Origin: Thiotrichaceae bacterium UBA5859
GTDB taxonomy: Bacteria > Pseudomonadota > Gammaproteobacteria > UBA5859
NCBI GenBank assembly: GCA_002432655.1
Contig: DJFZ01000032.1
Span: 1,775 to 65,774, forward strand
Direction: 5' to 3'
DNA: 64,000 nt
The notes under the pieces: generated by a model
What the model saw: only the letters and a program-made list of their open reading frames with translations
Told to the model about the DNA's origin: nothing
The model's database searches: none
Position numbers and translations under genes: made by a program
Shown: one piece after another, positions 5,454 through 60,676 of the stretch
How positions within the stretch are numbered: the first letter of the stretch is position 1
Layout of the letters: every line of letters begins with the position of its first letter

Positions 5454-5469
5454 TTAACTCATCCACCTA

Positions 5470-5976: not shown

Positions 5977-6039
5977 AGACGATAAAATCTGGGCCTGATA
6001 TAGGGACGGCTAGTCTATCAAATTAGTGGCAACAGTGCC

Positions 6040-6603: not shown

Positions 6604-6625
6604 ATCAGTTTAATCTTACTTGTAG

Positions 6626-19914: not shown

Positions 19915-20461
19915 ACAATAACCTATTTAACAATCTTTCCTTAATGCTGGGCACACTATTGTCTGTATAATTTTGATCCAGATGTGTCAGTATCGGTCTT
20001 GTGTGATGAATCCACATTTGTTCGTCCCAGAATAATGGTAGTGACAAACTACCTTGCGCAGCTAGCTTTTGATCGATAAGAGATCCTTCGTCCACCCGAA
20101 CTGATACAAAGTCTATTGCTTTTCGTTCCAGTGCCATACGCACGAGAGCAGCATAAGGACAGTGTGGTCTTTGGTATAAAACCTTATACCCATTAGTATT
20201 ATCAACTACTTCTACAGGGTTCGGTTTTGACGAAGGCAGCTGTTTATTTTCAATGCTGGTACTAGTTCGGTTATCTTCAACAGATTTTTTTTCTTGCTCG
20301 AAGGATTGCCACAGATCCAATAAATCAGCCTCGATGGATTTAGATGCAATTTGGCCCTTTTTCTTAAGAGGAGTTTTTCGACTACGTCCAATTTTCTCAG
20401 CCACTTCCGCTTGTGATCCATAGTGGCTAATGAGTGCCTCCAGAATCTCTAGTGACGTCAT
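19898..20461 (-). CDS. Hypothetical protein: N-terminal HTH-like segment plus C-terminal thioredoxin-fold (glutaredoxin/GST-N-like) domain
   Basis: C-terminal KVLYQRPHCPYAALVRMALERKAIDF...LPLFWDEQMWI resembles a glutaredoxin/GST-N monothiol CPYA motif; N-terminal YGSQAEVAEKIG is HTH-like; 3' end overlaps the LysR gene convergently by 17 nt. Confidence 0.4.
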   Translation of the reverse strand: MTSLEILEALISHYGSQAEVAEKIGRSRKTPLKKKGQIASKSIEADLLDLWQSFEQEKKSVEDNRTSTSIENKQLPSSKPNPVEVVDNTNGYKVLYQRPHCPYAALVRMALERKAIDFVSVRVDEGSLIDQKLAAQGSLSLPLFWDEQMWIHHTRPILTHLDQNYTDNSVPSIKERLLNRLLFNLMD

Positions 20462-20647
20462 GCTCCTCTCCTTTTTGATGCATCGAGATTTTTATCAGTC
20501 AACTTATCCATCAACGATACACCGAATTGACCTAGTAAAAAAGTCTGTGCTTCTTTACATTTGACAAGTAGCGCAAAAATCACTTAAAAAACACGGTCAT
20601 GTGTTAAACTGGCTGTCGAAATAAAAACAAGACCCCAAGGGGCTAAT

Positions 20648-30873: not shown

Positions 30874-31962
30874 TTATGGGGTAGTGGTCGCAAGTTCTCC
30901 CGTAAGCTCACGAATTTGTTGCTGCCTTTCGGGGTCTTCTCTATGTAGCTCTAGGACAAACTGGAAAAATTCAGCGCTACTATCCACTGAACCCACAGCC
31001 ACCAAAGTCCGTCCGATTTCCATAAAGATTCGCTCATCCTCTTTGTCTATTTTTTGGACTTCTTTATAATATTTTTTTACTTCATCCAAATTACCACGAA
31101 TGGCTGCCACTTTGGCTAACCCACTCCAAGCGAACTTGTTATTAGTTTTTTGCAGAACCTGACGACAGGTATTTTCGGCATCTTCCAGCCTGCCCACATT
31201 TCTATAGGCATCTCCGAGCCGGGTTAACATCTCAATGGTGCCTTCATGCCTAGTTAAAATGCGCTCCCAATGACTGATTGCTTGTTCATACTGTTGTTGC
31301 CATCGCAAACAGTCACCCATTCCAAATAATGCATAGGCATTAAATGGCTCTTCGTCTAAAGCTATCGAGTAGTAACTCTTGGCTTGTTCAAATTCTTTTT
31401 TATAGCGATAAATATTACCCGCCATAGTCAGCACGTGTACCGACCGTGGATCCTGTTCCAATACCTTCAAATAATGAACCAAGGCCTGATCCGCACGTTC
31501 GGTTTTTTGATACAGATCTGCAATACCAATGAGTGCGTAACGATCTTTAGCATTTATCTCCAAGGCCTTATTGTAGAAACTTTCAGAGTCTAGATAGTTG
31601 CCAATTTTTTTATAGGCATCGGCCACGCGAGTAATCACGAAAATATCATTCGGGCGTTCTTCAAGATATTTTAGCCACACCTCAGCCGCGTCTATGTATC
31701 GATGTAATCCTCGATAGGCATCTCCCAGGCCTCTAAGCGAAAATACATTCTTTGGATCCACCTTGAGTACGGAAAGATAGCATTGAGTGGCTTCACTGAA
31801 TTCTTTACAGCGACGTAACACATCGCCCAGCCCCGTCAAGGCATATGCATTCTGAGACTCAATATGCAATGCCTTTTCAAAACTTGCGCGTGCGTCTTGG
31901 AGGTTATTTTGTTTGGAAAAGCGATTGCCTTGTTTACAAAGCTCAACGACCGTGGAATGCAT
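30874..31962 (-). CDS. Cytoplasmic TPR-repeat protein
   Basis: Repeated A..Y...G.....A...Y.KAL..P 34-residue units across 362 aa; no signal peptide. Confidence 0.65.
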   Translation of the reverse strand: MHSTVVELCKQGNRFSKQNNLQDARASFEKALHIESQNAYALTGLGDVLRRCKEFSEATQCYLSVLKVDPKNVFSLRGLGDAYRGLHRYIDAAEVWLKYLEERPNDIFVITRVADAYKKIGNYLDSESFYNKALEINAKDRYALIGIADLYQKTERADQALVHYLKVLEQDPRSVHVLTMAGNIYRYKKEFEQAKSYYSIALDEEPFNAYALFGMGDCLRWQQQYEQAISHWERILTRHEGTIEMLTRLGDAYRNVGRLEDAENTCRQVLQKTNNKFAWSGLAKVAAIRGNLDEVKKYYKEVQKIDKEDERIFMEIGRTLVAVGSVDSSAEFFQFVLELHREDPERQQQIRELTGELATTTP

Positions 31963-32293: not shown

Positions 32294-32977
32294 CTACACG
32301 GCGGCCGGTAACAGAGCGTCTTCATTCTCCACGGCGCTTTTGTACTCCGCCTCTACACGGCTATGAAAATATCTTCTATTTTCCTTCAGAGCTTGGAGCA
32401 CTTGTTGAGGTCTTCCTACGTAGGGCACCCGCTTGCCCCGATGCCGGCACTCTTGTCCACACTGCTTTAACTCAATACCTAATGAGCGATAGACGCGCAA
32501 AAGTGTGAGAGGCACAATACCGACGATGCCCTCAACCTCTGCTTGATCTGAATGAGCCGAAGCGGCGCGCAACATACCCGCGATAATCGGCTTCTCCGGG
32601 CGAATGGTTTCCCTCTTTAAGCCTACTCCGATCAGCGTTTGAATAGCCAATTCTCTATCGATACACAGACGCGACAGCTCGACAATTTTTCCATGACGGC
32701 ATTTATTTAAGATGCCATCATCCAACTCAGTAATCAGTGCTGAGGGTATTTGCGGATTAGACGAAATCAAGCGAAATCCTGCCACAATCGCATGAGATGC
32801 TTTGGATTTAACAATAAAATGGCTAGAAGTTTGATCGAAGAAATCCCGCTCCATTCTATCTTTGCTGACCCGCTCAAACTGCTTTAATTCACAAAATATT
32901 CGATGTCTTAACCTAAAGTGAGCCAGTCTTGTTTCTTCATCATTTGCCAATATTACTTCAAAATGATCATCGAACAT
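32294..32977 (-). CDS. LuxI/FeeM-like GNAT-fold acyltransferase, paralog A (resembles PEP-CTERM/exosortase-associated acyltransferases)
   Basis: FRLRHRIFCEL...ELSRLCIDRE...HGKRVPYVG motifs are shared with the downstream paralog and with autoinducer-synthase/N-acyl amino acid synthase-like families. Confidence 0.55.
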   Translation of the reverse strand: MFDDHFEVILANDEETRLAHFRLRHRIFCELKQFERVSKDRMERDFFDQTSSHFIVKSKASHAIVAGFRLISSNPQIPSALITELDDGILNKCRHGKIVELSRLCIDRELAIQTLIGVGLKRETIRPEKPIIAGMLRAASAHSDQAEVEGIVGIVPLTLLRVYRSLGIELKQCGQECRHRGKRVPYVGRPQQVLQALKENRRYFHSRVEAEYKSAVENEDALLPAAV

Positions 32978-33305
32978 CTACATAAACCTTCCTTGAATAC
33001 TGCTTTCAATATCTCCGCTGGAGATTAACTTTTTACGTTTCTAGGCACTGCGCGGGGTTAAAACCCAGATTGACTCATCTTATAGCGACTGGATTGTGCT
33101 CAGATTGAAGACGGGATCACCTTCGGATTGGCTCACTTCCGCCCTCTATCTATCGATGAAAAAATGAATTTATCAATAAAAATAAGGTGTTGGGAGGTTA
33201 ATCTAGAGTATAAAAACAAAAGTCGAACCTTTTCAACAGATTTAATATATTTCAGCGTTTATTCAACATCGTTTTTATTAAATTTTTCTTAATAATGCAC
33301 AACTT

Positions 33306-34121
33306 TTAAACATGATTAACGCAAGAACGCGGTGGATGCCAATAACACTCTCCATTGGTAATAAAATGGTAAACTTCCGGGCGCAAATGTTGAATGCCCA
33401 ACAAAACCTCTTCCACGCTGTTAAAAACCGGAACCCTCTTGCCATGGTATTCCACGTCCGTTCCAATACGCATAAATTCGATACCAAATCTCTTTAAAAG
33501 CCGTAACAACATAGGTTCCATCACCGCAAACCAATTATCAATGCCTTGGTCCGCACTCATTTGCACAATCGAACGGAACAGCCCTAAGGTGATATAGGGT
33601 AGATAGCGACGCTCATTGCTCATCGGTCCCTCATCCAATTGTTGAACAGCTTTATTGGTTATACCATGATGTACGTTTTGCTCACCAATGCGTCGTCGAA
33701 ACTCGCGAGAAACAGCAAATCTAGAAATTTCTGCAGCCGTCTTTCTGGTTTGGGAAGATACGCGGTAGCCGTAGTTTGCCAAACTAGTTCCACAATGCTG
33801 TTCAATCGGAAGCAGACTAAATTCTGAGCCATCCATCGGCAGGACCAACCGTACAGTTGCGGCATCCCAACCTGTTCTTTTATGGCGGATCAGGCAGTGT
33901 ACTGATCGACTATCGTAAATATCCCGCTCTAATCCACGATAACATTGTTGAGGATTTTCAAACGGATGCTCCAAACAATACACTTGATAACGTAGCCGAA
34001 ATACTGCGTCAAGCATTTCATCAGTTTTCACAGGCAAGATTTCGAAATAGTCGAAAAAATGATCTAACTCACTTTGTGTGGCGCTCCTGCCTAGCTCCCT
34101 TGAAACTTGTTTACTCATCAT
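33306..34121 (-). CDS. LuxI/FeeM-like GNAT-fold acyltransferase, paralog B
   Basis: FRLRYQVYCLEH...EISRFAVSREFRRR...YHGKRVPVFN; clearly alignable with paralog A along its length, with an extra N-terminal ~20 aa and internal indels. Confidence 0.55.
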   Translation of the reverse strand: MMSKQVSRELGRSATQSELDHFFDYFEILPVKTDEMLDAVFRLRYQVYCLEHPFENPQQCYRGLERDIYDSRSVHCLIRHKRTGWDAATVRLVLPMDGSEFSLLPIEQHCGTSLANYGYRVSSQTRKTAAEISRFAVSREFRRRIGEQNVHHGITNKAVQQLDEGPMSNERRYLPYITLGLFRSIVQMSADQGIDNWFAVMEPMLLRLLKRFGIEFMRIGTDVEYHGKRVPVFNSVEEVLLGIQHLRPEVYHFITNGECYWHPPRSCVNHV

Positions 34122-34278
34122 GGCGACTGTGGCCTACTTTCCGAATAATTATATTTACTATAATAATAGTCGACCCGATATTGTCCCTATTGAGTGTCTA
34201 ATATTTAAACAGTTGTGAACCTGGTCGCAAAAATTAATATTTATTTATATGTAGAAAGAGGGCTTAACCTGGATACGG

Positions 34279-36540
34279 CTAGGAAACCGTGCTCGAACGG
34301 CGCAATCGCTCCACTATAACTACTAGAGCTGGCAACAATAACAGATCAAATGCTAACGCGGTCATCATGCCTATGGTGGTTAATAGACCAAAATATTCTA
34401 TGGGCTTGAAGCCGGAGACCACCAATAAACCAAATTGTAAACTTAAAATAATTGTGGTGACAGATAGGGCCGCCCCGACTTTCGTTAGGGCAATATGAAT
34501 CGACTGATGGACGTTTATTCCCGATTGACGGGATTGGCGATAAGCGTGAAAGAGGTGAATGGTATCATCTACGGCCACTCCCACGGCGACGCTAGCAATC
34601 ATTGCAGTGGCCATATCCAACCAAATACCACAGATCCCCATCACTGCAAAAATCAATATGATGGGAGAGATATTCGGTATCATACAAAGGATAGCGGCGG
34701 GTAAACTTCTGAATAAGATTAACAACGAAATAAAAATAAGCGACAAAGCGCCAAACAAGCTTCGAACTTGACCGCTAATGAGGAGCGATTCTTGATCCGC
34801 AAACAATCGGCCATCACCCGCTATTTGAACGGTTACTTGATCTAATGGCACCTCATTCAATCTGTCTTCGATTCGACTCATTAACCCCCGAATTTTTTGT
34901 GAGCCCTGCTCATGTACACTGATCAAAATCCGGGTTTGCGCGAAATCTCTATCCACAATGTCATATAGATCTTCGCCATCATATAACTTTAAGTATTGGG
35001 CAATTAAGCGATCGCGTTGTGGGACAACACGATAATCTTCCACGCCATCATGGAACGCCCAGTGCATCTCCTCTACATATTCCGCCATAGATAGGGTGCG
35101 ATCCACTTCTGGCTGCGCCTCTAACCAGATCTGCATCGCGCGTATCCAATTTTGACTATGTGCATTCAGCAAACCATCCCGCTGCGATGACGTGAGCAAT
35201 AGTTCCAATGAGGTGACACCACTTATTTGTTCTTGAAATTTTTCTGTGGCTTGGACTAATTCGGAGTCCGACTCAAAGTACTCCAGAAAGTTTGTTTCTG
35301 TATGGATAGCTGTGATCTTGGGAATACATGTAAACACTACAAATGCAAAACCCGCCACCACCAAGAAGGGATAGCGAGTAGCCAACAGGCTACAACTTTC
35401 TAACATTGGATCGAAGATACCCACACCAAAACGAGTTTTGGACCAACTTTTATTGTCCCACTTAGCAAACAGCGGTGGCACAATAAACATTACGATAAAA
35501 AACAAAATAAACACACCCAGGGCACTGATCAATCCGAATGTACGAATGGGTACTATCGGACTTAAACTAAGTGACGCCAAACCCGCTGCAGTGGTGATGG
35601 ATGTAAACAGTGCTGGCTTGTATATTTGTTTTAATGCTTGCGTAAACCTTCCATTCCCTTGATATCCCGATTGCTCCGCTAACAACACACTATTATAAAA
35701 ATGCACCAACAGCGCCACGGTAAGCGCGCCTAGTAAAGATGGCATCATAGTGGAAACCAGTGTATACGGTTGTCCGCTAATCACAAATAGCGCGAGGGTG
35801 GCAGTACTCACGGTATGCATCGCCACCAAGCCCACTACCACAGCCATGACACGTCGAAACATCCACCACAGTAATAACAATGCTATCCCTAACGTCAATG
35901 GGATCAGGCGCATATTTTCCTGCATCATTAAATTGAGCTGATATACATCCACTGCCACTTGACCGACGCTGCCTTGGTACCATGACATCAAATGATGTTG
36001 TTCCATTAAACCCAGTGTGGTCTGTACAAGAGAGTTTCTTTCTACACTGTTACCCATGTCGTTAGGTCGTATTACCATCGCTACAGCGGTTGCATCCTCA
36101 CTCACTAACCATCCAGGTGCGAACCTATCTTGAAGTACTGTTTGTCGAATGACATGGGGTTCGAGCTGTACAAAATTGGCCACATCGACTAATGGGACGA
36201 TTTCAAAACCGTCCTCTACTGGTTTAACAGATTCCACAGTCGTAAAAGTTAATACTTTCTCCACAAAATCTTGCCTGGAAAGATCTGTTGCCAAGTGATT
36301 TAGATTGATTAACACATTGTGCTGAAAAAGATCCTGTCCTTCAAAGAGTAAGATCAACACTTGGTCTTGAGGGAATTTCTCACGAATGAGTGCATCAATT
36401 TGCACAGCCGGTTCGGCATCGGACAAATACACGCCAGGTGCATTGTTGATTTCAAGTTGGCTTAATAGTCCAGCGGGTAAAACCAAAAATAAGATCAAGA
36501 TGATTACGGCTTGTTTGGCGCTAAAGTAGATCTTGTTCAA
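34279..36540 (-). CDS. MMPL/RND-superfamily exporter (two 6-TM bundles with sterol-sensing-like regions)
   Basis: 753 aa; periplasmic domain between TM1 and TM2, two hydrophobic bundles; TTG start overlapping the stop of the upstream gene. Confidence 0.75.
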   Translation of the reverse strand: MNKIYFSAKQAVIILILFLVLPAGLLSQLEINNAPGVYLSDAEPAVQIDALIREKFPQDQVLILLFEGQDLFQHNVLINLNHLATDLSRQDFVEKVLTFTTVESVKPVEDGFEIVPLVDVANFVQLEPHVIRQTVLQDRFAPGWLVSEDATAVAMVIRPNDMGNSVERNSLVQTTLGLMEQHHLMSWYQGSVGQVAVDVYQLNLMMQENMRLIPLTLGIALLLLWWMFRRVMAVVVGLVAMHTVSTATLALFVISGQPYTLVSTMMPSLLGALTVALLVHFYNSVLLAEQSGYQGNGRFTQALKQIYKPALFTSITTAAGLASLSLSPIVPIRTFGLISALGVFILFFIVMFIVPPLFAKWDNKSWSKTRFGVGIFDPMLESCSLLATRYPFLVVAGFAFVVFTCIPKITAIHTETNFLEYFESDSELVQATEKFQEQISGVTSLELLLTSSQRDGLLNAHSQNWIRAMQIWLEAQPEVDRTLSMAEYVEEMHWAFHDGVEDYRVVPQRDRLIAQYLKLYDGEDLYDIVDRDFAQTRILISVHEQGSQKIRGLMSRIEDRLNEVPLDQVTVQIAGDGRLFADQESLLISGQVRSLFGALSLIFISLLILFRSLPAAILCMIPNISPIILIFAVMGICGIWLDMATAMIASVAVGVAVDDTIHLFHAYRQSRQSGINVHQSIHIALTKVGAALSVTTIILSLQFGLLVVSGFKPIEYFGLLTTIGMMTALAFDLLLLPALVVIVERLRRSSTVS

Positions 36541-38366
36541 AATGCCACGCTCCAGCCAAGCGCAAGATAGTCTCTGGAGTCAAAAAATCCGCCTATTGTT
36601 TGTTCATCTCCATCAAATGTATGGTAGGCAACAATCAGCTCGTGGGGTTCGAAGTTGCGAAACACAAGCTTCGGAGAGAGATAATAGTCCTCTTCACTGA
36701 GACCGATGCGACTACGCAGTTGAAAGCGGACACGATCATTCGCGAAAGCGTACTCAAGCTGACCATTGAGTGCATAAGTTTCGTCATCATCGAGAAATGG
36801 CTCATCCGCAGTTTTGCGATTGCCCGTCAACTGTATATTGATTCGAGTATCTTTATCGCCCGGATAAAACTCCATATCCAAAATCCAATGTAGTTGTTCA
36901 CTCTCGAGTAGTGCAAGATCCACGCCCGTCACCGGCATATCCTGCAAATTTGCCACTTCAAAGCGTAGTAATGACAAACCAAGATCCCAGGCGAACTCTA
37001 ACCCTGTGGCGACGATTTTTGGATGAACTTCAAAAAAGGTAGGCCCGCTGGTGGCTGCCAGCGCAGTGTCCACATCATTGTTGGATAAAACGAGATTCTG
37101 CACCATTTCTGGTGAGACGATAAAATAAGGCTGAGGGTTTTGTGTTTCCAAATAGCTCATTCCCCAATCCATCGAATTTAACGATTGCGTAAACCTAATC
37201 CCTCCAGACTCCTGCTCTTCTTCACGTATGCTAAGGGAGCCTTGTGTCACTAGACGAGCGATCAGCGGTGTCTCACTAAAGCCTAATAGCTGCCCACTCT
37301 GAGGGGACATCAGAGTCCAGAATTGGTCTCGATCAGCGGTCAATGGAGATAAGCTATTTGGTATATATAGAACATCCAGCTTGGCAGAGCCCAGAAACCA
37401 CTCGAGACGAAGCGCCGGAGTAGCCAATCGCCGTTCAGGTAACTCATCTATAAACCCGCGTCTAATATCCTGTCGACTGAGTAAATCTAATGGGCTGAAT
37501 TCGTCTGCTTGCCCCCAAATCACCGTTTGTGCACCCAAAGTCAAACGTGCAGACTCGCCACGGTAGCGCAAATAGGCTTGATCTAGTAAAAGCTTATAAT
37601 CTCTAACTTCATTAACCGCACTAAGCACGTAAGCATCTGCTCGTGCACCGATCCTAATTTTCCAGCCTGGAGACAACGCCCAATTTAATTCAGATCCAAT
37701 ACGCAAATAATTTGGATAGGTTTCATGTTCTGCAGTTGAACGCCCAAGTTCAGAATAAAGCTCATTTTTCAGTTCAATGGACGCAAATAATGCGCTTGTT
37801 ACCTCAGTTGTTTTCTCCGGAACTGAGTCTAGTACCTCTTGTCGCTGCTCAGTGCCGTCTTCTGCTAAGTACCCTCGCACTATATATCGGAGTTGTTGCT
37901 GTTCGAAAGGATGGGAATCAACTTTGTATCCTAGCGATTCGACTCTATTTTTGGTTCTTTGCAGATAATCCCGACTTTTAAAAATGCCTACTGATATCCA
38001 TAACTGCTGAATATGTTGATTACCAAAGATCTGTGTTTCAACTCCATGCTGCGCAAGCCTTCGCTGCACCCTCTGCGCCTCATCCATTTGAGAGATCGGA
38101 CCGATGCGCAGTTGGGTGAACAACACCAGTGTCTGTTTCTTCTCAATAGAAATATTGGTTGCGCCCTGGGCTACAAGAACGTCTACCCGCTCTTGCGCGG
38201 CCGATTGTGTCTCATACATCTGCTCAAACCAATTAGAGTGTTCCTGAGCTACGAGTGTGGACAGTAAGGTGTTAATCACAAAGAGGGTGACCAGGAAAAT
38301 GAGGGTTCGGAAATGGCTGACAGCGATGAGCATACAAACAAAGTTCCGCAGGCGTAGATTTGCCAT
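36537..38366 (-). CDS. Putative outer-membrane beta-barrel protein with N-terminal signal/anchor and SPOR-like module
   Basis: 609 aa; long hydrophobic N-terminus; alternating amphipathic beta-strand-like pattern; C-terminal ...LGWSVAF ending in Phe, typical of OMP barrels; translationally coupled to the MMPL gene. Confidence 0.45.
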   Translation of the reverse strand: MANLRLRNFVCMLIAVSHFRTLIFLVTLFVINTLLSTLVAQEHSNWFEQMYETQSAAQERVDVLVAQGATNISIEKKQTLVLFTQLRIGPISQMDEAQRVQRRLAQHGVETQIFGNQHIQQLWISVGIFKSRDYLQRTKNRVESLGYKVDSHPFEQQQLRYIVRGYLAEDGTEQRQEVLDSVPEKTTEVTSALFASIELKNELYSELGRSTAEHETYPNYLRIGSELNWALSPGWKIRIGARADAYVLSAVNEVRDYKLLLDQAYLRYRGESARLTLGAQTVIWGQADEFSPLDLLSRQDIRRGFIDELPERRLATPALRLEWFLGSAKLDVLYIPNSLSPLTADRDQFWTLMSPQSGQLLGFSETPLIARLVTQGSLSIREEEQESGGIRFTQSLNSMDWGMSYLETQNPQPYFIVSPEMVQNLVLSNNDVDTALAATSGPTFFEVHPKIVATGLEFAWDLGLSLLRFEVANLQDMPVTGVDLALLESEQLHWILDMEFYPGDKDTRINIQLTGNRKTADEPFLDDDETYALNGQLEYAFANDRVRFQLRSRIGLSEEDYYLSPKLVFRNFEPHELIVAYHTFDGDEQTIGGFFDSRDYLALGWSVAF

Positions 38367-38374
38367 GACGATGA

Positions 38375-39154
38375 TTAAAGTTCTTCTAAGGAGCGTCGTG
38401 AGAATCTATCCCTTGACAAGCCCATGTCATAGTCTATGGACTCCAAGCGAATTTCGGTGCTATGTTGAGAGATCAAATCGGTCATGACCGAATGCGTCAC
38501 AGTCCAATATCCCTCGATTTTCTTTTTCGAAAGAACTTTAAAACTCTTTATAGGGTCCTCATCACCCGACCGATAAAACTCGATTTTCATCGCTAATAGG
38601 GTGTCGGGATCAATCCAGCTGAGACGCTTGCTATAAACAGTAGACTGCGCTCTGAGCGGAATACTCTCTAAAACTATACAGTCGCAGCTGCCAATGGGCA
38701 TCGCTTTCACAATCGCATGTTTATCAAGATTAGGCGGCCTATCTCTAAGATCTTCAAAGAAGATATCAGAGCCAACAAATCGTCCTCCCTTTCTGGAAGA
38801 AGCAATACGACGTGCTCGATCAAGATCAGGTAAAAAAACCAATTGCTCTTTGTTTACCCCACTCACATCATGGGTCAACAAACCCACCCCCTTCATATCT
38901 GCTGGCGAGCTAAAACGTATCAGCGAGCGAATGCCTCCAGCTCCTTCATCTAGGCGATAGGTAGTCATGCGGCGAATACGAGGCTTGGTACCAGGTGAAA
39001 TTAAATGCATTTCGCCTACAGAAACGAAATCAATACCGTCAGGTCGTTCATACACCCGCTGGGCAAGAAGATCACCATCTTCCGTTGCCCATGAGGGTTG
39101 AACAAACAGCGTCAGTATAGGCGCAATAACAGCTAAAAGTATAGAAAACCGCAC
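38375..39154 (-). CDS. LolA-like outer-membrane lipoprotein-sorting family periplasmic protein
   Basis: Signal peptide; IRFSSPADMKGVGLLTH...QLVFLPDLDRARRIASSRKGGRFVGSDIFFEDL matches the conserved core of the LolA_like family often paired with MMPL transporters. Confidence 0.65.
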   Translation of the reverse strand: MRFSILLAVIAPILTLFVQPSWATEDGDLLAQRVYERPDGIDFVSVGEMHLISPGTKPRIRRMTTYRLDEGAGGIRSLIRFSSPADMKGVGLLTHDVSGVNKEQLVFLPDLDRARRIASSRKGGRFVGSDIFFEDLRDRPPNLDKHAIVKAMPIGSCDCIVLESIPLRAQSTVYSKRLSWIDPDTLLAMKIEFYRSGDEDPIKSFKVLSKKKIEGYWTVTHSVMTDLISQHSTEIRLESIDYDMGLSRDRFSRRSLEEL

Positions 39155-39240: not shown

Positions 39241-39280
39241 AAAAAAAAAGCCTCGCAAGGCGAGGCTTTTTTGTTTTTTT
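39241..39280 (-). terminator. Rho-independent terminator downstream of the PEP-CTERM gene, likely bidirectional
   Basis: A9-gcctcgc-aag-gcgaggc-T6gT7: a GC-rich 7-bp stem, 3-nt loop, flanked by an A-run and a T-run. Confidence 0.8.
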
Positions 39281-39287
39281 ATCGGAT

Positions 39288-40181
39288 TTACCGAACTCTT
39301 CGTCGAGCCAGACCACCCATCCCTAATAATCCTAACCCCATCAAAGCGAGCGTTCCAGGTTCAGGTACAGCAACTGTGAAGTCGATACTACCATTATGGT
39401 CAGAAAGCACAGTAAACAGTTCAGAATTTAAAGGATCTCCAGGACCTACTACTACATTATCTGTGTTTTGGTCTAAATTCCAGGAAAGCGCAATGATGCC
39501 ACCATCTAATAAATCGTTGGCATCGGAATCTGCGCTTGTATCTGCAATACCATCACCATTGCTATCAAAGAAGAAGAAATCTTCCAGAGCAAAAGTGATT
39601 TCACCAAAAATAATGGAAGAACCTGATACAAAAGCACCACCCGCGAAAAGATTCGAGCCTGTACCACCGAGAATAGTCAACTCAAGAACCTTGGTTCCAT
39701 CACCGTAGCCAGTGTCATCACCCAGACCTAAACTACCATTGTCATTGCGATTTAATGCGGTATCTAGATAAAACGAGATGACGGTACCAGAATCGTAGGT
39801 AGTGGTTTGATTTACGCCGTCAAAAGCAGTTACGGTTCCGCTTAGTCCAGTCCAGGTTGCGGTTAACTCATACCCGCCTAGAGAATCCAAACCTTCATCA
39901 TCAATTATCGCTGAAGCTATCAATCCATTAATGTAGGCATTACCAGAATCAACAAAGGAGTCCCCTACGGTTAGACCTGGATTACCATCATCATCAAATT
40001 GAACAGACTCTGTGTTCGCAGAAAAAGCGAACTGCTGTGCCACACCAGTCAGAGTGTTGGCATCAAAGCCTGTTCCAGCAGAACCTGCCACACCAACATC
40101 ATAAAAAAAGCCAGTAGCAAAAGCACTAGAACTTGCCGCTAATATTGAAGCCCCTAAAGTCGCCTTACTTAAAGTTTTCAT
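39288..40181 (-). CDS. PEP-CTERM sorting-domain exoprotein
   Basis: Signal peptide MKTLSKATLGASILAASSSAFA; Gly/Asp/Thr/Ser-rich body with Asp-rich D-x-N-x-D-G-like loops (FDSNGDGIADTSAD); C-terminal VPEPGTLALMGLGLLGMGGLARRRVR, i.e. PEP motif, TM helix and Arg cluster. Confidence 0.9.
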   Translation of the reverse strand: MKTLSKATLGASILAASSSAFATGFFYDVGVAGSAGTGFDANTLTGVAQQFAFSANTESVQFDDDGNPGLTVGDSFVDSGNAYINGLIASAIIDDEGLDSLGGYELTATWTGLSGTVTAFDGVNQTTTYDSGTVISFYLDTALNRNDNGSLGLGDDTGYGDGTKVLELTILGGTGSNLFAGGAFVSGSSIIFGEITFALEDFFFFDSNGDGIADTSADSDANDLLDGGIIALSWNLDQNTDNVVVGPGDPLNSELFTVLSDHNGSIDFTVAVPEPGTLALMGLGLLGMGGLARRRVR

Positions 40182-40230: not shown

Positions 40231-40246
40231 AGCAAGTGCTGTGCCA
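40231..40246 (-). promoter_or_regulatory. Sigma-54 (RpoN) -24/-12 promoter for the PEP-CTERM gene
   Basis: Minus strand reads TGGCAC-AGCAC-TTGCT, a perfect TGGCAC-N5-TTGCW match. The -12 element lies ~50 nt upstream of the ATG, with an AAGGGTGA Shine-Dalgarno between; the sigma-54 activator PrsR is encoded just upstream. Confidence 0.65.
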
Positions 40247-40479
40247 AACCGTCTTAACCAGAATATCTTATTGTTTTATAAAGCATTTTTTATTTATGCA
40301 TCACGACTAGAATCCACCTTAAAAGTCAGTTAGCAGGATCCGCTGATAAAACGTAAAAATAGCTGACAGATTTTATCCATGATCCTGAAACCATCTAGGC
40401 AGCCATATTGACAAATGGTCTTTTATTGTTATTTTTCAATAGCTTATATTTTAGTCGGCAGTGTAAAAAAATTTAACGG

Positions 40480-41394
40480 CTAAGGTTGAGAGCGCGCGAG
40501 TCTGCTACCGAATTGCCTTTTAGCATGTGAAATGAGCAATCTTTGCATGGGGTTCCTCCATCCAAAGGGTCTCCAAGTTTTACGTAATCGTTGTTTGTAG
40601 GCATCGAAGTGTAAGCCCCATGGTGCCGTTGTCACCTTTCCCCTAGCAAGCAAGATTTTTAAGGCTTGAGTGGCGGCTAGTCCCGCACATAACTCACAGG
40701 CCATTGGCGTAGACGGCCCTTGTCTGCGGTTAAAATCCACACGACTAGGCTCGATCAGATAACCCATCTGCAACATGGCCGGTGAAAGGCCGACCAGAAA
40801 TCGTATATATTGTTCCACTTCATCACGTCCTTGTAGGCCAAAATATGCCTCGAAAGACATGCCGCTGGGTAAAAATGCTAAGAACGCACAACCCATGCCC
40901 AAGGGAGCTGCAGTAATCGCCGGAATACCGCGCTCACCACAGGCGGTAAACAAAGCAGAACGTATTGGTAGCTGAAAAAAATCCAGGCTATCGACATAAA
41001 TATCAACGTCTTGGAGAAAATCATCCAGATTTTCCTCAGACACCCCTTGTTCAAAACCGGTTAAGTGCAACTCGGGATTAATATCGAGCGCCATCTGTGT
41101 CATGGTCTCTAATTTCGAACAACCCATGGAGCGAAGGCTGGCACCCGCTTGTCGATTAAAATTCGCAAGCTCAAAGCGATCAAATTCAGCCAGACTAAAA
41201 CCACCAACACCTAATCGGGTTAGAGTCAGCAAATGACTTCCCCCCACCCCGCCTAAACCGGCGATGGCAATTTTTTTTGCGCGTAAAATTTGCTGCTCAG
41301 ATTCGGTCACCCAACCCAGATTGCGTGAAAAAGCTTGTTCGTACTGAAACTGATTATCATCCATGATTCGTATATCGCGTGATGTCACCCTCAT
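40480..41394 (-). CDS. ThiF/MoeB/HesA-family E1-like adenylyltransferase
   Basis: IAIAGLGGVGGSHLLTLTRLGVGGFSLAEFDRFELANFNRQ is a Rossmann nucleotide-binding and E1 signature; 304 aa; a single C-x-x-C (CELC) near the C-terminus. Confidence 0.75.
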   Translation of the reverse strand: MRVTSRDIRIMDDNQFQYEQAFSRNLGWVTESEQQILRAKKIAIAGLGGVGGSHLLTLTRLGVGGFSLAEFDRFELANFNRQAGASLRSMGCSKLETMTQMALDINPELHLTGFEQGVSEENLDDFLQDVDIYVDSLDFFQLPIRSALFTACGERGIPAITAAPLGMGCAFLAFLPSGMSFEAYFGLQGRDEVEQYIRFLVGLSPAMLQMGYLIEPSRVDFNRRQGPSTPMACELCAGLAATQALKILLARGKVTTAPWGLHFDAYKQRLRKTWRPFGWRNPMQRLLISHAKRQFGSRLARSQP

Positions 41395-41405
41395 TCATGA
41401 GTCGA

Positions 41406-44183
41406 CTATTGTTTAAGTTCCTGCCAGAGGGCTTCTGCTTCAGCTCTTGAATTGAATTCCCTTTGGCTATAAATAAAGGGCTCGAGGATCTCTCGCGCCC
41501 TTTCTTTGGCATTCAGGTGACTATTTACGAGCGCTAGGTGATAAGCGATGTCGGCGTTATTTCGCTGCTTTTGATATGCTCTACTCAATAACTCCTGCGC
41601 CTTAGTCCATTTATTTTCTTCCACCAGCAGCATAGCATAAGTATCCATGACTGCCGGCACCTCTGGTGCTAACTGATAGGCTTTTTCAGCGTGAGATAAG
41701 GCTTGTTGATACTCTTTGTCCCTTAAGTGCCAGGCTAGATTATTTAATGCCACTAGATTATTAGGTTTAACAGCTATTACTTTCTGCCAATAGGTAATCG
41801 CCAACTCTATTTGAGCCAGAGCTAAATATTCGTTTGCCATCCAAATCATTAAGCCCGTATCCTGGGGTCTATCTGCTATCCAGGCGTCGACAAATCTTTC
41901 CACCTGTTGCCAACCGCGACCAAGCTTTATCACCTGAGCAAGTGCGATAGCATTGCGCTCAGAGGCTTCAATCTCGATAGCTTGCCGCAGCGCGCGCTCT
42001 GCTCTTGAAAAATCTTGTACACCGTGGGCCAAGTCCGCCTCTAGCTCAAGTCCCATCACGGCCTCAGGCCACAACTGACGATATCGGTTAACTAAGGGCT
42101 CCGCTCGGCTAAATTGCTTTTCTTGCAGTAACAGTAAGGCAAGAATTCCTGTGGCAGACTGATTTTGTTCCTGCTCTTGTAACACCTGACGCAGATGGAA
42201 CTTAGCCTCTTCTGGATAACCGGCCGCCATATACGCCTGCGAAATGAGCAAGTTCGCATCAATATGGTTAGGATATGCATTCAATACGCGACGACAAGAC
42301 TGCACGGCTTGTTCCGGTTTGCCACGGCGAATCAATAGTTCACAATGAAACAGGGTGAGATCAGGTTGATCGGGTTCAACCTCCAACCCTTCATTAATTT
42401 GCGCCAGGACTTCGTTTAGCCTCTCTTCACTGAACAAATACTTAATTAAGGCAATTCGATTTTTAATCGAGTTTGCATCACTTCGCAATGCCAGCCGCAA
42501 CCAGCGCTCATAAGCATCAAAATCTTTTCGGGCACGGGCTAACTTGGCCATTTTCTCAATAGCCACTACATTGTTTTCATCTTGCTTCCAAACATCTAAA
42601 AACCACTTCTCAGCAAGCTCGTAGTCACCCCGACCCATAGCTATCTCGCCAATGTTAAATGCCGGCGAAGGATTTTTTCCATCAAGCTGATGTGCGCGTT
42701 CGAAACTAGCCATTGCTTCGTCCTCTTGTTTCAAGGACAAATGTGCGATACCCATCAAATTGTACGCAACAGGCTCCTTAGGGTAAGCAGCCACCCACTG
42801 GTTCGCAGCCTTAATAGCCGCATCAAATCGTTGCGCATCCAACAAGGCGAGGGTTTTAGTGAGATGAATTTGTGGGCCTGCTTGCGGTCGACCGAGTAAC
42901 GTATCAAGTTCTGTTAAGCCTCTATCAACCTGATCTGCGTCCACCAATGCTCCTGCCAGCTTAAACCTCAAAATATCTTCGTTTGGATTCTTGTCTACTA
43001 TCTCCTCCATCAGTTGCAAACCACGTTCTGTTTCGCCTTCACGCAGATATAGTTGTGCAGACAATAGCGTCAAACCGAGATGATCCACCGACAAAAGTAA
43101 ACCCTCTTCCACCACTTTTCTCGCCCGCTCTAGTTGCCCACTCTGAATTAAGATTTCCCCCAATAGTCGATAGGCGCCCACATTTTTGGGATGATCAAAA
43201 AGATATCGGGATACCAAACGCTCTGCCTGTGAATAATTTTTATCCTGCAAAAAAATAGTTGCCAACAGCAAAGGCACGTCCCTAAAGGAACGATACCTGG
43301 ACTCAATTTCCAGAAGAATCGCTCGTGCCTCATCTACCTGTCTATTTTGTAAAAGGATACGAGCCTTAGCGTATCGAGTTTCCAAATTACCATATATTTT
43401 ATCTGCTAATTCCACGTCTTTTAGGGCGGCTGCCGGTTGATTGCTATCGCTAAAATAATAGGCCCGTTGCAGCACTGCTAACCAATGATCCCGACTTCCA
43501 GGTACCGCCGATTTGATTGCTTGCGCGAACACGGCTTCCACCTCTGCACCTGATTCACCTTGAGTGGCCAACAGTAGCGCATAGATTCGGTATGCTTCCG
43601 ATACTGCACTATCCATCTGAATGGCCCTACTCAATGTGAGTGTCGCTTCTTCGAGATCGCCTTGGTTCTTTAAAATCAATCCGTATAAAGCAAGTGCTTC
43701 GCTATCGCTTGATAAATTTTCTAGACTGGTCAATAAATCTATCGCTTCTGGATAGCGGCCAAGAGCGAGCAGCACCCTCGCCTCTAACTTTATCAATGCA
43801 GATGTCGGCACCGCATTTTCAGGAACTTGTGCCAAACGAGATAATGCCAGTTCATTCTCATGCCTAAAGTGCGCAGCCTCGGCAAACGCCAGAATAAAAT
43901 CAAGGTCGGTTGCCCCCAATGCCTCTGCTTTTTCTAATTCCTTTTCCGCCGTGGGACCATCGCCAAGCAGCAAATAGTTTTCACCCAATAGGCGACGAGC
44001 TTCCACATGGTCTGGGCTGCGTTGCAATATGGTTTTCAGATCCAAAACACTTGCCTGGATCTCTCCTTGAGACTGCGCTACTTTCGCCCGCTCAAACAGC
44101 TCCTCATCGGAGGGTGTCCTGCTACAAGCGACTAACAGAAGTACCGGAACTAAAAAACCAAAAACCATCCTAATAAAACCCAT
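41406..44183 (-). CDS. prsT: PEP-CTERM system TPR-repeat lipoprotein, PrsT-like
   Basis: 925 aa; lipobox LLLVAC-S after the signal peptide; TPR repeats throughout; size and context match PrsT. Confidence 0.7.
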   Translation of the reverse strand: MGFIRMVFGFLVPVLLLVACSRTPSDEELFERAKVAQSQGEIQASVLDLKTILQRSPDHVEARRLLGENYLLLGDGPTAEKELEKAEALGATDLDFILAFAEAAHFRHENELALSRLAQVPENAVPTSALIKLEARVLLALGRYPEAIDLLTSLENLSSDSEALALYGLILKNQGDLEEATLTLSRAIQMDSAVSEAYRIYALLLATQGESGAEVEAVFAQAIKSAVPGSRDHWLAVLQRAYYFSDSNQPAAALKDVELADKIYGNLETRYAKARILLQNRQVDEARAILLEIESRYRSFRDVPLLLATIFLQDKNYSQAERLVSRYLFDHPKNVGAYRLLGEILIQSGQLERARKVVEEGLLLSVDHLGLTLLSAQLYLREGETERGLQLMEEIVDKNPNEDILRFKLAGALVDADQVDRGLTELDTLLGRPQAGPQIHLTKTLALLDAQRFDAAIKAANQWVAAYPKEPVAYNLMGIAHLSLKQEDEAMASFERAHQLDGKNPSPAFNIGEIAMGRGDYELAEKWFLDVWKQDENNVVAIEKMAKLARARKDFDAYERWLRLALRSDANSIKNRIALIKYLFSEERLNEVLAQINEGLEVEPDQPDLTLFHCELLIRRGKPEQAVQSCRRVLNAYPNHIDANLLISQAYMAAGYPEEAKFHLRQVLQEQEQNQSATGILALLLLQEKQFSRAEPLVNRYRQLWPEAVMGLELEADLAHGVQDFSRAERALRQAIEIEASERNAIALAQVIKLGRGWQQVERFVDAWIADRPQDTGLMIWMANEYLALAQIELAITYWQKVIAVKPNNLVALNNLAWHLRDKEYQQALSHAEKAYQLAPEVPAVMDTYAMLLVEENKWTKAQELLSRAYQKQRNNADIAYHLALVNSHLNAKERAREILEPFIYSQREFNSRAEAEALWQELKQ

Positions 44184-44210: not shown

Positions 44211-46982
44211 CTAGCTATCTAACTGGGTCAGAAGCTGTTCTGCTTGTGTTCGACTACTAAACGATCCAGGATTGGACAACAACTTTGTCAATAACGCTTT
44301 TGCTTCTGACTTTTTACCATTTCGCTGCAGTAACACCGCCAAATGATATGAAATCTCCTGATCTTTCGGATTAAGCCTATGTGCCTTATGAAGCAACTCG
44401 CTGGCGTGGTTCAGTTTGTTGTGCGACAGAAGCACCCACCCATACGTATCCACCACCGCAGCATCCTCAGGCGCCAATTGATAAGCCGATTTAGCATGCT
44501 TAAGAGCTTTTTGCAGATCAGTGTCTAGATAAAGATAGGCCAGATTGTTGTGGATCTGTACTTCTGATCCGGAAGATTCGTCCAGCAATCTTTCGTACTC
44601 GGCAATTGCCAAAGTGGACTGCCCAAGACGATGATATAAGGTCGCGAGCGCCAATCTGATATCTGTATTTGGTTCGTTGATGGTCAATGCGTCCGTTAAA
44701 AGAGTTATCGCCTTTTTTGGCTGTCCGGCTCGGAGACTTGCCCGGCTTGCTTGTATTAAAATCTCATCGGCTGGCTCTCGCACGTACGCGATTTCGTAGT
44801 TTTCGGCAGCCAATCCGAATCGATTTTGATGCGTGTAAATCTTAGCCGCCAAGTGATATCCCACAGCTTCATTTGGAGCTAACTGCTGCAGTCTATATGC
44901 AAATGCAAGCGCCAGATCTGGCTTCGCCCGACGCATCGCCAAATCCACTGCTACGATTAAGGTTCTCGGCCTCAAGCTATCTTCTGCGATTGACTGTAAC
45001 TGACTCCAAGCTTGTTGATATTGTTGTTGTTGGTAAAGTGCGTAAACAATAGATTCTGTGACACCGACTCCTGGGCTGAGTGCCCCCCCTAGTCCCTGAT
45101 AGTAGTCCAAAGCCAATGACCAGTGTTCATATTCTAAAAACACGTCACCGATACGCCTTCTCAGAGACAAACCGTCTGCATTCAAATTAAGTAATTGCTC
45201 CGCTATTCGTTGCGCCGCGGACGGATCCCCCATAGTCAGATGCACCCGCATGGTCATAAAACCAGCAGCTAAATCCTGAGGATTCAATTCCCAAGCCTGC
45301 TGGGCTGTTTGCAAAGCTTTTGAGTTATTTCCCGAATATAGATAGAACCTAGCTTGAGTTAACAACAGCTGTTTATCCAAAGGTACCTTTTTGCTCGCCT
45401 TTCTATAAAGCCTCTCTGCTTCATCAAAGTCTCGCTGCTGACGCTTAACTTCAGCTAAATTTAGCAGCGCTGGTAGATAATCTGCTTGCATCGATAACGC
45501 ATGATTGAATCGTTCCGAGGCCGCATCCACATCACCCTGATACAGTTTCACTAGCCCCAATAAATTAGCAGCAAAGGGTTCACTGGGATATCGGGCGAAC
45601 AAACGCTCAGCTTCTACAACTGCATCGTCGCTATATCCCGCTGTCAACAATGATAATACGGTAATATAACCGCTCTGTAATGAATCTGCTGCCGCACTAT
45701 ATCGTGCTTGCTCTAATGCTTGTTCTATTTGTCCGGAATAAATTGACTGAATCGTGTTTCGAATTTTTGCATTTTCGTCGTAGGGCTGAAGAAAACTAGC
45801 TTTCTCCAAAAGGTGCAATCCTTTTTTTTGCTCTCCTGATTCAATGTAAGCCAACCCCAATAGAGTCATTAGATCCGTATTGCCGTGATTCGATGATTGA
45901 ACCTGAGTTAACGTTGACACCGCACAAGAACTACAGCCCAGTAGTAACTGGACATTGGCATAAAGCATACTAATTTCTAAATTATTAGGTTCTAATTCTA
46001 AGTAATGCTTGAAGTGCTGTGTCGCTTGCTGATGATTGTCCTTGGCCATCGCTACTCGACCCAACAACTCCAATGCAGAAAGCTGATTCGGCTCCACCGA
46101 CAAAATTTCTTTTAGTTGCTGCTCGGCCAGATCATACTGTTGCGCAGACCACAACCATTGCGCCTGTAAAATTTTAGCAGGGAGCAAAGTGGGCTCTCTT
46201 TCCAATAACCAATTAATATCTTCCTGGGCACGATTGAACTCTTCATCAGCTAACAACAAGGCTGCGCGTCTTAACCTCGCTTCTATATTCTGAGGATGTG
46301 TTCTCAAGATTTTGGAATATTGTAATCTAGCTGCTTTTATACTCCCCCGTTTTTCATACAGTTGTGCACGTATAAACTGTGCACCAGAGTCATTCGGAAA
46401 ACTATCTAATAGCATGGTTAGATGACGTTCTGCAGAAACATCATCTCCTAGTTCAAATGCTTTGCGCGCCAAAGCCCAATTCGCCGTATGGCTTTTTGGG
46501 GATAACTCTAAGGCCTGTTGGAATTTAATTGTACCCTCTTTTATTTGACCCAAGTTCAATTCGGCCTGTGTTCGAAGCGCCAGAATTTCTCCTCTGATCT
46601 CTTGTGAATCATTGGCTTGCACTGTCAATTGATTCAGTATTTCTCTATTTTTTTCCTGTGCTAGGAAAAACTGCCCAAGCCATATCACATAAAATTTACG
46701 AGATAAGCCTTTCGTCTTAGCCAACTCAATCGCATGTTCTGCTTCATCGTAGCGCCCCATTTGCGCATAGATTTGGCTCAATAGAAATGGTGTGGAGAAG
46801 TTATTGGGATCTGCTTGTTGCGCATTCTTCAATTCAATCAATGCGGCACGAAAGTCTCCAGCCTCGACATATAGACGAGCACTGTCTTGAAATTGATCTA
46901 CGGAATCAGCCGCGAGCGGTATTGGACAGAGAAGAACAATCGCTATGAACTGTAGGTTTCTAGCTAACTTCACAACACTCAT
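44211..46982 (-). CDS. Second PrsT-like ~920-aa TPR protein (paralog; signal peptide, lipobox doubtful)
   Basis: 923 aa; signal peptide; TPR repeats; same length class and orientation as the adjacent prsT. Confidence 0.65.
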   Translation of the reverse strand: MSVVKLARNLQFIAIVLLCPIPLAADSVDQFQDSARLYVEAGDFRAALIELKNAQQADPNNFSTPFLLSQIYAQMGRYDEAEHAIELAKTKGLSRKFYVIWLGQFFLAQEKNREILNQLTVQANDSQEIRGEILALRTQAELNLGQIKEGTIKFQQALELSPKSHTANWALARKAFELGDDVSAERHLTMLLDSFPNDSGAQFIRAQLYEKRGSIKAARLQYSKILRTHPQNIEARLRRAALLLADEEFNRAQEDINWLLEREPTLLPAKILQAQWLWSAQQYDLAEQQLKEILSVEPNQLSALELLGRVAMAKDNHQQATQHFKHYLELEPNNLEISMLYANVQLLLGCSSCAVSTLTQVQSSNHGNTDLMTLLGLAYIESGEQKKGLHLLEKASFLQPYDENAKIRNTIQSIYSGQIEQALEQARYSAAADSLQSGYITVLSLLTAGYSDDAVVEAERLFARYPSEPFAANLLGLVKLYQGDVDAASERFNHALSMQADYLPALLNLAEVKRQQRDFDEAERLYRKASKKVPLDKQLLLTQARFYLYSGNNSKALQTAQQAWELNPQDLAAGFMTMRVHLTMGDPSAAQRIAEQLLNLNADGLSLRRRIGDVFLEYEHWSLALDYYQGLGGALSPGVGVTESIVYALYQQQQYQQAWSQLQSIAEDSLRPRTLIVAVDLAMRRAKPDLALAFAYRLQQLAPNEAVGYHLAAKIYTHQNRFGLAAENYEIAYVREPADEILIQASRASLRAGQPKKAITLLTDALTINEPNTDIRLALATLYHRLGQSTLAIAEYERLLDESSGSEVQIHNNLAYLYLDTDLQKALKHAKSAYQLAPEDAAVVDTYGWVLLSHNKLNHASELLHKAHRLNPKDQEISYHLAVLLQRNGKKSEAKALLTKLLSNPGSFSSRTQAEQLLTQLDS

Positions 46983-56941: not shown

Positions 56942-56961
56942 ATAACACTTTTAGCGGATCC

Positions 56962-57633: not shown

Positions 57634-57724
57634 AACTCGGCAAAATCGTTCGTCAGCCGCTATAATCAACAATCCACAAAATAATAAATTAATAGGTCAG
57701 AACAGCTCCTACAGTGATTCAAGG

Positions 57725-58858: not shown

Positions 58859-58860
58859 AT

Positions 58861-60675: not shown

Positions 60676-60676
60676 C

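Follow-up and report, generated by a model that had tools for sequence, protein, structure and literature searches.

Do the two acyltransferase genes at the edge of a gammaproteobacterial PEP-CTERM island and the transport-type genes directly upstream of them belong to one pathway, and what would that pathway make and move? We addressed this question in a 64,000-nucleotide stretch of Thiotrichaceae bacterium UBA5859 (contig DJFZ01000032.1, positions 1,775 to 65,774; hereafter, the window), whose closest public relatives are metagenome-assembled genomes (MAGs) labelled Thiotrichaceae or 'Gammaproteobacteria'. An earlier note, made from the letters of this DNA alone, had placed five co-oriented open reading frames (ORFs) between 32294 and 39154: two LuxI/FeeM-like GNAT acyltransferases, here called NAS-A and NAS-B after N-acyl amino acid synthases, and a trio consisting of a LolA-like carrier (LolA_like), an outer-membrane barrel and an MMPL/RND pump. 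The ORF listing of the window returned this minus-strand run at exactly those coordinates, and profile searches bore out the identities of both gene sets. We found that the trio is linked to synthase genes in other genomes, with the pump exchanged for an ABC transporter in some of them, and we tentatively propose that these genes link the making of an N-acyl amino-acid lipid with its passage through the envelope.

The trio lies directly upstream of the NAS genes on the same strand and is tightly packed. LolA_like (38375-39154, minus strand, 259 aa) matched PF17131 with 163.1 bits against a cut-off of 30, which identifies it as a putative TP_0789-like or LolA3-type periplasmic carrier of hydrophobic ligands. 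A Sec signal peptide (SWA|TE) is present and a lipobox Cys is absent, as expected for export to the periplasm, and its PDB matches were LolA3 of P. gingivalis (9TP6; 5e-26, the closest), 4Z48 and 3BK5. The 609-aa outer-membrane protein (36537-38366, minus strand) consists of a signal peptide, a SPOR-like peptidoglycan-binding domain at about residues 52-145 (25.8 bits against 21) and a DUF1302-type beta-barrel (31 bits against 23.2) with the C-terminus ...GWSVAF. Its orthologs matched the same models better, at 36-58 bits for SPOR and 41-61 bits for DUF1302. The AlphaFold (AF2) model, built from 5 sequences, was poor (pLDDT 47) and contained about 20 long beta strands between residues 197 and 608; the protein is a DUF1302 family member by Pfam, with the barrel fold itself a prediction. 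Two word-index homolog searches with the barrel, one from the single sequence and one from a 9-sequence profile, returned only 5 proteins. An exhaustive representative search among 1.84 billion proteins found 156 representatives at E<=1e-30, indicating that the family of SPOR-DUF1302 barrels is small.

The third member of the trio is an MMPL/RND inner-membrane transporter (34279-36540, minus strand, 753 aa; Pfam MMPL 90.8 bits against 20.5) with 12 transmembrane (TM) helices predicted from hydropathy in a 1+5/1+5 arrangement and two periplasmic loops of about 175 aa; a DDT motif around TM10 is invariant. Its closest solved relatives are HpnN, MmpL4/5 and MmpL3. The protein fell below the subfamily cut-offs, scoring 132.9 against 351.9 for HAE3 (TIGR00921) and 75.8 against 751 for HpnN, and since the domain and the topology are present while the HAE3 score is not reached, we assign it to an unmodelled RND/MMPL subfamily. 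No NCBIfam model names the LolA_like or the barrel proteins. At the junction of LolA_like and the barrel, the TAA stop codon is followed after 8 nt by the barrel ATG, and at the next junction the barrel TGA overlaps the TTG start of MMPL (TTGA); a public gene call puts the barrel start 11 codons later (598 aa), leaving a 41-nt gap instead. Taken together, the gene assignments in the window are strong profile matches on long ORFs and go beyond chance, and they agree with the carrier, barrel and pump that the earlier note had proposed.

For the acyltransferases, NAS-B (33306-34121, minus strand, 271 aa) is a canonical PEP-CTERM/exosortase system-associated acyltransferase: it scored 250.4 bits on TIGR03694, whose curated cut-off is 111.95 bits, and a public protein 100% identical to it bears that name. 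NAS-A (32294-32977, minus strand, 227 aa) is a short and divergent synthase-like GNAT protein that scored 105.2 bits, 6.7 below the cut-off; as its own clade scores 105-163 bits, we regard it as a fringe rather than a clean member. The exosortase-associated model therefore recognizes only one of the two proteins above its cut-off. Both NAS-A and NAS-B exceeded the Pfam gathering scores for Acetyltransf_5 (45.7 and 52.2 bits) and Autoind_synth (42.6 and 37.8 bits). On the FeeM model (PF21926), NAS-B reached 23.4 bits against a cut-off of 27 and NAS-A had no match. The AF2 model of NAS-B (pLDDT 85) had LasI, TofI, RpaI, BjaI and FeeM as its top Foldseek matches and superimposed on FeeM (2G0B; E 1.7e-7, TMt 0.68-0.73), which the profile search of the PDB had missed. 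That search, run with the NAS family profile, matched LuxI-type synthases, and single-sequence searches of the PDB with NAS-A and NAS-B were uninformative. These matches uphold the LuxI/FeeM-like identity. Acyl-homoserine lactone (AHL) synthase equivalog models gave only 18.6-31.2 bits against cut-offs of 250-292, so the identity of an AHL synthase was rejected and both proteins are placed in the LuxI superfamily, not in the LuxI family.

The two proteins share the motifs FRLR(H/Y)..(F/Y)C and (E)xSR(L/F), as the earlier note had seen, as well as GKRVP; the exact HGKRVP that it ascribed to both is found only in NAS-B, and NAS-A reads HRGKRVP. They are 24% identical, and NAS-A lacks an insert of about 35 aa present in NAS-B. 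In a neighbor-joining tree of 105 NAS homologs from related loci, NAS-A clustered far from NAS-B with the second copies of other loci (L002, L003, L004, L052, L055, L056 and L075; L numbers denote loci from other genomes or metagenomes). We also scanned 80 NAS loci, one genome per species, with locus-built hidden Markov models, and 21 of them carried two NAS copies. The description of the pair as tandem paralogs holds for their position; a recent duplication is ruled out by the low identity and the separate clades, and the two genes are an old paralog pair from distinct clades that recurs across lineages.

The statement that this family has no known product is outdated. In published accounts (PMC9762135, PMC7293339 and PMC4897644, citing Craig et al. 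2011), members of TIGR03694 give long-chain N-acyl amino acids or amides on heterologous expression, and NAS-A and NAS-B may likewise make long-chain N-acyl amino acids. In Methylomonas LW13, knockout of a gene of the NAS family led to the loss of a polysaccharide band.

Starting from NAS-B, we asked how often the transport genes accompany the synthases. Among the 80 loci, MMPL and LolA_like were both found in 7, with the orthologous barrel also present in 3 of these, and the barrel alone occurred in 3 others. In 11 further loci, two FtsX/MacB-type permeases and an ABC ATPase replace MMPL, and LolA_like and the SPOR-DUF1302 barrel remain. This ABC-type module (L004:351-5997 and L011:1771-7721, both confirmed in composition by Pfam; also L009, L012, L021, L031, L054, L060 and L076) comprises two FtsX/MacB_PCD permeases, LolA_like on the opposite strand, the ATPase and a (SPOR-)DUF1302 barrel, and it takes the place of MMPL with NAS and a ThiF-like gene adjacent. 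Judged from gene content, the MMPL pump is swappable with a LolCDE-like ABC transporter, in what looks like a non-orthologous displacement. When the count was restricted to loci flanked by 8 kb or more on both sides of NAS (37 fully flanked loci), 12 carried a module within 10 kb against 0.2-0.9 expected by random placement, although the loci are phylogenetically related, so that this count and the p-values of such comparisons overstate independence.

Approaching the locus from the other side, we scanned metagenomes starting from MMPL and searched with the barrel. LolA_like, the barrel and MMPL always occurred together in the MMPL scan, and among the loci with long flanks NAS adjoined the trio in L100, L101 and L103. 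The barrel search added L105/L106, with the order ThiF, LolA-barrel-MMPL, NAS, NAS and then exopolysaccharide (EPS) export genes, and L110, with the order ThiF plus nitroreductase, NAS, trio, PilZ and EPS export. Altogether, the trio was directly adjacent to and co-directional with NAS in the window/L081, L018/L101, L035, L044/L100, L103, L105/L106 and L110, with junction gaps down to 29-56 bp (L044, L035). At least 8 different gene orders from gammaproteobacterial MAGs and metagenomes join the trio to NAS. These results indicate that the adjacency of MMPL and LolA-like genes to the synthases, which the earlier note had seen in a single genome, is real and conserved elsewhere. The tie is recurrent and not exclusive, since the module tracks the ThiF-like gene even more closely, often lies near a PepA-like gene and sometimes occurs where no synthase was found.

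Several loci from these searches had features of their own. In two loci that are not related to each other, the MMPL trio has a gene for a PilZ-domain protein (c-di-GMP receptor) as its neighbour (L097:7980-8765, plus strand; L110:9129-9743, minus strand). In L089, a 410-aa fusion of a FeeM-type NAS domain (PF21926, 69 bits) and a cyclic-nucleotide-binding domain (19669-20901, plus strand) is divergent from ThiF and lies about 7.5 kb from the LolA-barrel-MMPL trio. NAS-free sets of LolA_like and barrel, with or without MMPL, have AAA_16/AAA_22 ATPases and two proteins lacking annotation on their flanks (L082:1991-2893; L108:1032-2477 and 5127-6713). A distant branch of SPOR/DUF1302-like barrels occurs alone, with no LolA_like or MMPL nearby (L085:10001-11707, L111:10001-11764), in housekeeping surroundings between the ndk-rlmN-hisS-der and the isc Fe-S genes and adjoining an unannotated protein of about 400 aa.

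Across genomes, the gene found most consistently next to both the synthases and the transport module is the ThiF-like one. In the window it encodes a ThiF/E1-like adenylyltransferase of the PRK08223 type (40480-41394, minus strand, 304 aa; NF006077 420.8 bits against 266). ThiF adjoins NAS in 37 of the 80 loci, and among the fully flanked loci the module was present in 11 of 17 with ThiF and in 1 of 20 without it (Fisher p=2e-4). In most genomes the ThiF next to NAS is a fusion of about 660-690 aa with a nitroreductase-like domain, and in some the two are adjacent genes; fused or split forms are found at L011:7777-9765, L018:7325-9313 and L110:405-2483 (all minus strand), L089:17238-18293 and L097:8762-9880. 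The ThiF of the window stands alone, and no nitroreductase gene is visible there.

The surroundings put these genes on the margin of a large XrtA/PEP-CTERM island, as the left 23 kb of the window consist of housekeeping genes and the right part carries XrtA-type EPS genes. Further upstream of the ThiF-like gene on the same strand lie two PrsT genes, PrsR, PrsK, a TIGR03013 glycosyltransferase (EpsB_2) and GalE. PrsK, PrsR, both PrsT, EpsB_2 and PepA are all within 20 kb, as would be expected of a PEP-CTERM/exosortase locus; exosortase XrtA itself was not seen within the 64-kb window. The two PrsT genes encode full-length tandem TPR lipoprotein paralogs (41406-44183 and 44211-46982, minus strand; TIGR02917 433 and 484 bits), and such a tandem pair is also present in L081 and several other loci. 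The EPS genes at 54.9-63.7 kb (54920-63718) encode a 673-aa Wzy_C-like protein, a TPR protein, a FemAB-like GNAT protein, an asparagine synthase, a polysaccharide deacetylase, a methyltransferase and a GT4 glycosyltransferase. Downstream of NAS-A, a gene for a 362-aa TPR protein (30874-31962, minus strand) is kept only in the closest relatives (L001, L081 and L086). It forms the border of the island and adjoins convergent housekeeping genes (O-methyltransferase, DUF6901 and metH).

What, then, could this neighbourhood do? [quoted passage not shown] We favour, with slightly less than even confidence, the reading that the module is an accessory of the XrtA/PEP-CTERM exopolysaccharide-floc island that couples the synthesis of an N-acyl amino-acid lipid to envelope transport. 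The simplest candidate for the cargo, which we name with the same reserve, would be the NAS product. In this proposal, which we infer on top of the observed family memberships, folds, topology, gene packing and neighbourhood conservation, NAS-B and NAS-A would act in the cytoplasm and put a long fatty acyl group from acyl-ACP or acyl-CoA on the amine of an amino acid. The proton-driven MMPL/RND pump would take the resulting amphiphile out of the inner membrane, and soluble LolA_like would shield its acyl chain across the periplasm. The SPOR-tethered DUF1302 barrel would receive the lipid at the outer membrane, for insertion or for release into the matrix, and activation of the lipid's free carboxylate may fall to the ThiF-like enzyme. 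In favour of such a route, every part of the trio comes from a lipid-handling family (HpnN/MmpL3/MmpL4/5 for the pump, LolA3/3BK5 for the carrier and DUF1302, as in AmeA, for the barrel).

Several observations weigh against this coupling of synthesis to transport. Of the fully flanked NAS loci, 25, mostly betaproteobacterial, have no module within 10 kb; betaproteobacterial NAS loci mostly lack ThiF as well as the module. The relatedness of the loci lowers the weight of the enrichment, and the module tracks the ThiF-like gene more closely than NAS as such. The trio was found without a detected NAS in L082, L087, L093, L097 and L108. PepA-like genes lie within a few kb of 10 of the 14 MMPL-type modules and are rare near ABC-type ones. 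When NAS genes are expressed in E. coli, the cells release N-acyl amino acids with no exporter dedicated to these products. The direction of transport by HAE3/DUF1302 systems is unsettled in the literature.

The DNA between the trio and the synthases belongs with these points. The 157-bp spacer between MMPL and NAS-B (34122-34278, minus strand) and the spacer before NAS-A (32978-33305) contain long stretches with 100% conservation in a relative that shares only 76-84% identity at the protein level, for instance TTTTTGCGACC.GGTTCACA.CTGTTTAAATA and GTCTTCAATCTG..CACA.TCCAGTCGCTATA. The blocks gave no match to known promoters or to Rfam. Upstream of the trio and the NAS genes, no sigma-54 promoter or PrsR box was found within 2 mismatches. 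Scans for sigma-70 promoters and terminators gave no enrichment over shuffles. No shared promoter was found, and the conserved 157-bp spacer suggests a separate regulation of NAS-B.

On the other side of the trio, the window encodes a PepA-type flocculation-associated PEP-CTERM protein (39288-40181, minus strand, 297 aa; NF033554 101.1 bits against 80, with a match to PF07589), which has a signal peptide and the C-terminal sequence VPEPGTLALMGLGLLGMGGLARRRVR. A candidate sigma-54 promoter with -24/-12 elements, TGGCACAGCACTTGCT (40231-40246, minus strand), lies 49 nt upstream of its ATG; no other site in the window matches without a mismatch, and the promoter sequence is identical in L081. Farther upstream is an enhancer-like block, TGTCAGCTATTTTTACG (40352-40368, minus strand), which is unique in the window and conserved in L081; the upstream block conserved there ends in TTTACG. 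This layout corresponds to motif 1 and motif 2 of Haft 2006 and to the experimentally studied pepA of Aquincola. The spacer between enhancer and promoter, at about 105 nt, exceeds the published maximum of 92 for the PrsR 'PEP-CTERM box', and the layout fits otherwise. Between pepA and LolA_like lies a strong predicted hairpin terminator (39244-39272, minus strand) with a 13-bp stem and T/A runs on either side, which L081 retains, with changes within the loop and next to it. When 30-42 kb were scanned against Rfam, the sole match was Leu_leader, below threshold and lying over this hairpin (39243-39307, minus strand; 27 bits against 50), most likely an artefact. Thus, the gene cluster does sit beside a PEP-CTERM gene, as had been noted; that gene appears to be a separate sigma-54 transcription unit, insulated from the trio by the conserved terminator.

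The cargo might be protein instead of free lipid: a Lol-like branch could carry XrtA-cleaved, PepA-type proteins joined to a lipid made by the synthases and ThiF, with extraction by MMPL or the LolCDE-like ABC transporter, carriage by LolA_like and surface display through the SPOR-DUF1302 barrel. We consider this unlikely. In its favour, the constant parts are machinery of the lipoprotein type and the permeases and ATPase of the 11 ABC-type loci resemble LolC/E and LolD. A PepA-like gene accompanies most MMPL-type modules and adjoins them directly in the window, L081, L017, L019 and L039, although PEP-CTERM genes are common in such islands anyway and, with one exception, the ABC-type loci have none within 10 kb. 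PrsT and ThiF are frequent neighbours even where NAS was not seen (L089, L092 and L097), and several processed forms of Aquincola PepA have been published. Lipidation is not known for any PEP-CTERM protein, and N-acyl amino acids have no free amine unless the residue is Lys or Orn; the separate promoter and strong terminator of pepA also argue against this reading. Rhombosortase and archaeosortase do attach their substrates to lipids, a point that counts in its favour. A fuller version, in which the exosortase would join the amino-lipid built by NAS and ThiF to the cleaved C-terminus of PepA and a dedicated Lol-like route would deliver it to the outer membrane, is more doubtful still.

An alternative that we judge as probable as a lipidated PepA-type cargo is that the trio is a general DUF1302/LolA-superfamily/RND transporter of hydrophobes or envelope lipids, with a substrate unrelated to the synthases. 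It would then serve efflux, uptake or outer-membrane lipid homeostasis and would be in the island only through co-regulation or co-inheritance with biofilm genes. Related cassettes have been published that act on monoterpenes (AmeABCD), fatty esters/Tween and long-chain alkanes, and the separation of the trio from NAS in L082/L083, L087, L093 and L108 as well as the failure to find a promoter common to the trio and the NAS genes fit such independence. Of the trio loci where NAS was not seen, L082 and L093 had nothing related nearby, L087 had only a PrsR-like regulator, and L092 and L097 had ThiF and/or PrsT. Against an unrelated substrate stand the immediate co-directional adjacency to NAS in at least 8 gene orders and the exchange of the inner-membrane component within a NAS/ThiF neighbourhood that is kept. 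The SPOR-DUF1302 subfamily is, in addition, small, and most long contigs with such a barrel are XrtA/NAS loci. Quorum sensing by LuxI-like synthases, with the trio as efflux for a hydrophobic signal, is very improbable: long-chain AHLs need efflux, Autoind_synth was above its gathering score and AHL synthases were the best PDB matches in sequence and fold, but the AHL equivalog scores stayed at 18-31 bits against 250-292, no LuxR-type receptor was found among the annotated ORFs of the window (several ORFs between 1 and 20.5 kb being unscanned), and characterised TIGR03694 members make N-acyl amino acids or amides and not homoserine lactones.

The conserved neighbourhood joins the synthases and a ThiF-like activator to a LolA-type carrier, a SPOR-tethered barrel and an interchangeable RND/ABC motor, and what had been a loose genetic association thereby becomes a definite envelope pathway open to testing. 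It bears on amino-lipid biology, on the biofilms of methanotrophs and on how bacteria flocculate in activated sludge. Lipidation of PepA, if it were true, would reveal the long-sought exosortase acceptor together with the step of outer-membrane targeting. None of the searchable papers treats exosortase and LolA together, or MMPL and LolA in connection with PEP-CTERM, and none describes the linkage, which agrees with the earlier note's view of the linkage as uncharacterised. A published table of the PEP-CTERM locus of Rubrivivax and Thauera lists exported unknown proteins, an ABC permease, an ATPase and UBA/THIF without comment.

We then compared the locus with known systems. Like other loci of the TIGR03694 family, the window has a full member by model score (NAS-B) with the LuxI/FeeM GNAT fold in an XrtA/PEP-CTERM island; unlike them, it adds the short paralog NAS-A, just under the cut-off, and its linkage to a ThiF-like gene and envelope lipid transport lies outside the published description, as far as this is searchable. 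Like that of the window, the RpoN-dependent PepA genes of Zoogloea and Aquincola are monocistronic; they have an enhancer-like motif upstream of the sigma-54 -24/-12 promoter and end in a stem-loop terminator, whereas pepA of the window lies between the ThiF-like gene and the trio and not upstream of prsT.

For the trio, AmeABCD of Castellaniella defragrans and the DUF1302/DUF1329/BNR/RND cassettes of Pseudomonas, which act on hydrophobic molecules, likewise bring together DUF1302, a LolA-superfamily periplasmic protein and an HAE3/MMPL-like RND pump. The periplasmic protein of the window is, however, a PF17131 protein of 259 aa and not a DUF1329 protein of about 450 aa (DUF1329 score 21.3, under 23.1), and no BNR/COG4447 gene is present among the window ORFs; we therefore do not count the trio as a member of the AmeABCD-type four-gene cassettes, alike as the two may be in working. 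The barrel of the window also differs in its N-terminal SPOR domain, and the genes around it form an EPS/PEP-CTERM island where those of the cassettes are catabolic. HpnN and MmpL3-type transporters, which move hopanoids or trehalose monomycolate outward from the inner membrane, share with the window MMPL the topology of 12 TM helices and two small periplasmic domains; the window protein scores far under their family cut-offs and has dedicated periplasmic and outer-membrane partners. With the Lol pathway (LolCDE-LolA-LolB) and LolA3, the module shares the pairing of a soluble LolA-fold carrier with an inner-membrane extractor, which in sister loci is a LolCDE-like ABC transporter, and LolA3 (9TP6) is the closest solved structure to the carrier. 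The window differs from that pathway in lacking the canonical LolA and LolB signatures, in having a large barrel instead of LolB and in using an RND pump as extractor. The link between NAS and PEP-CTERM systems and the occurrence of HAE3/DUF1302/LolA-superfamily cassettes in hydrophobe metabolism are already known, and the single genes are ordinary members of their families; what is new is that their combination is conserved, that SPOR is fused to the barrel and that the motor can be exchanged.

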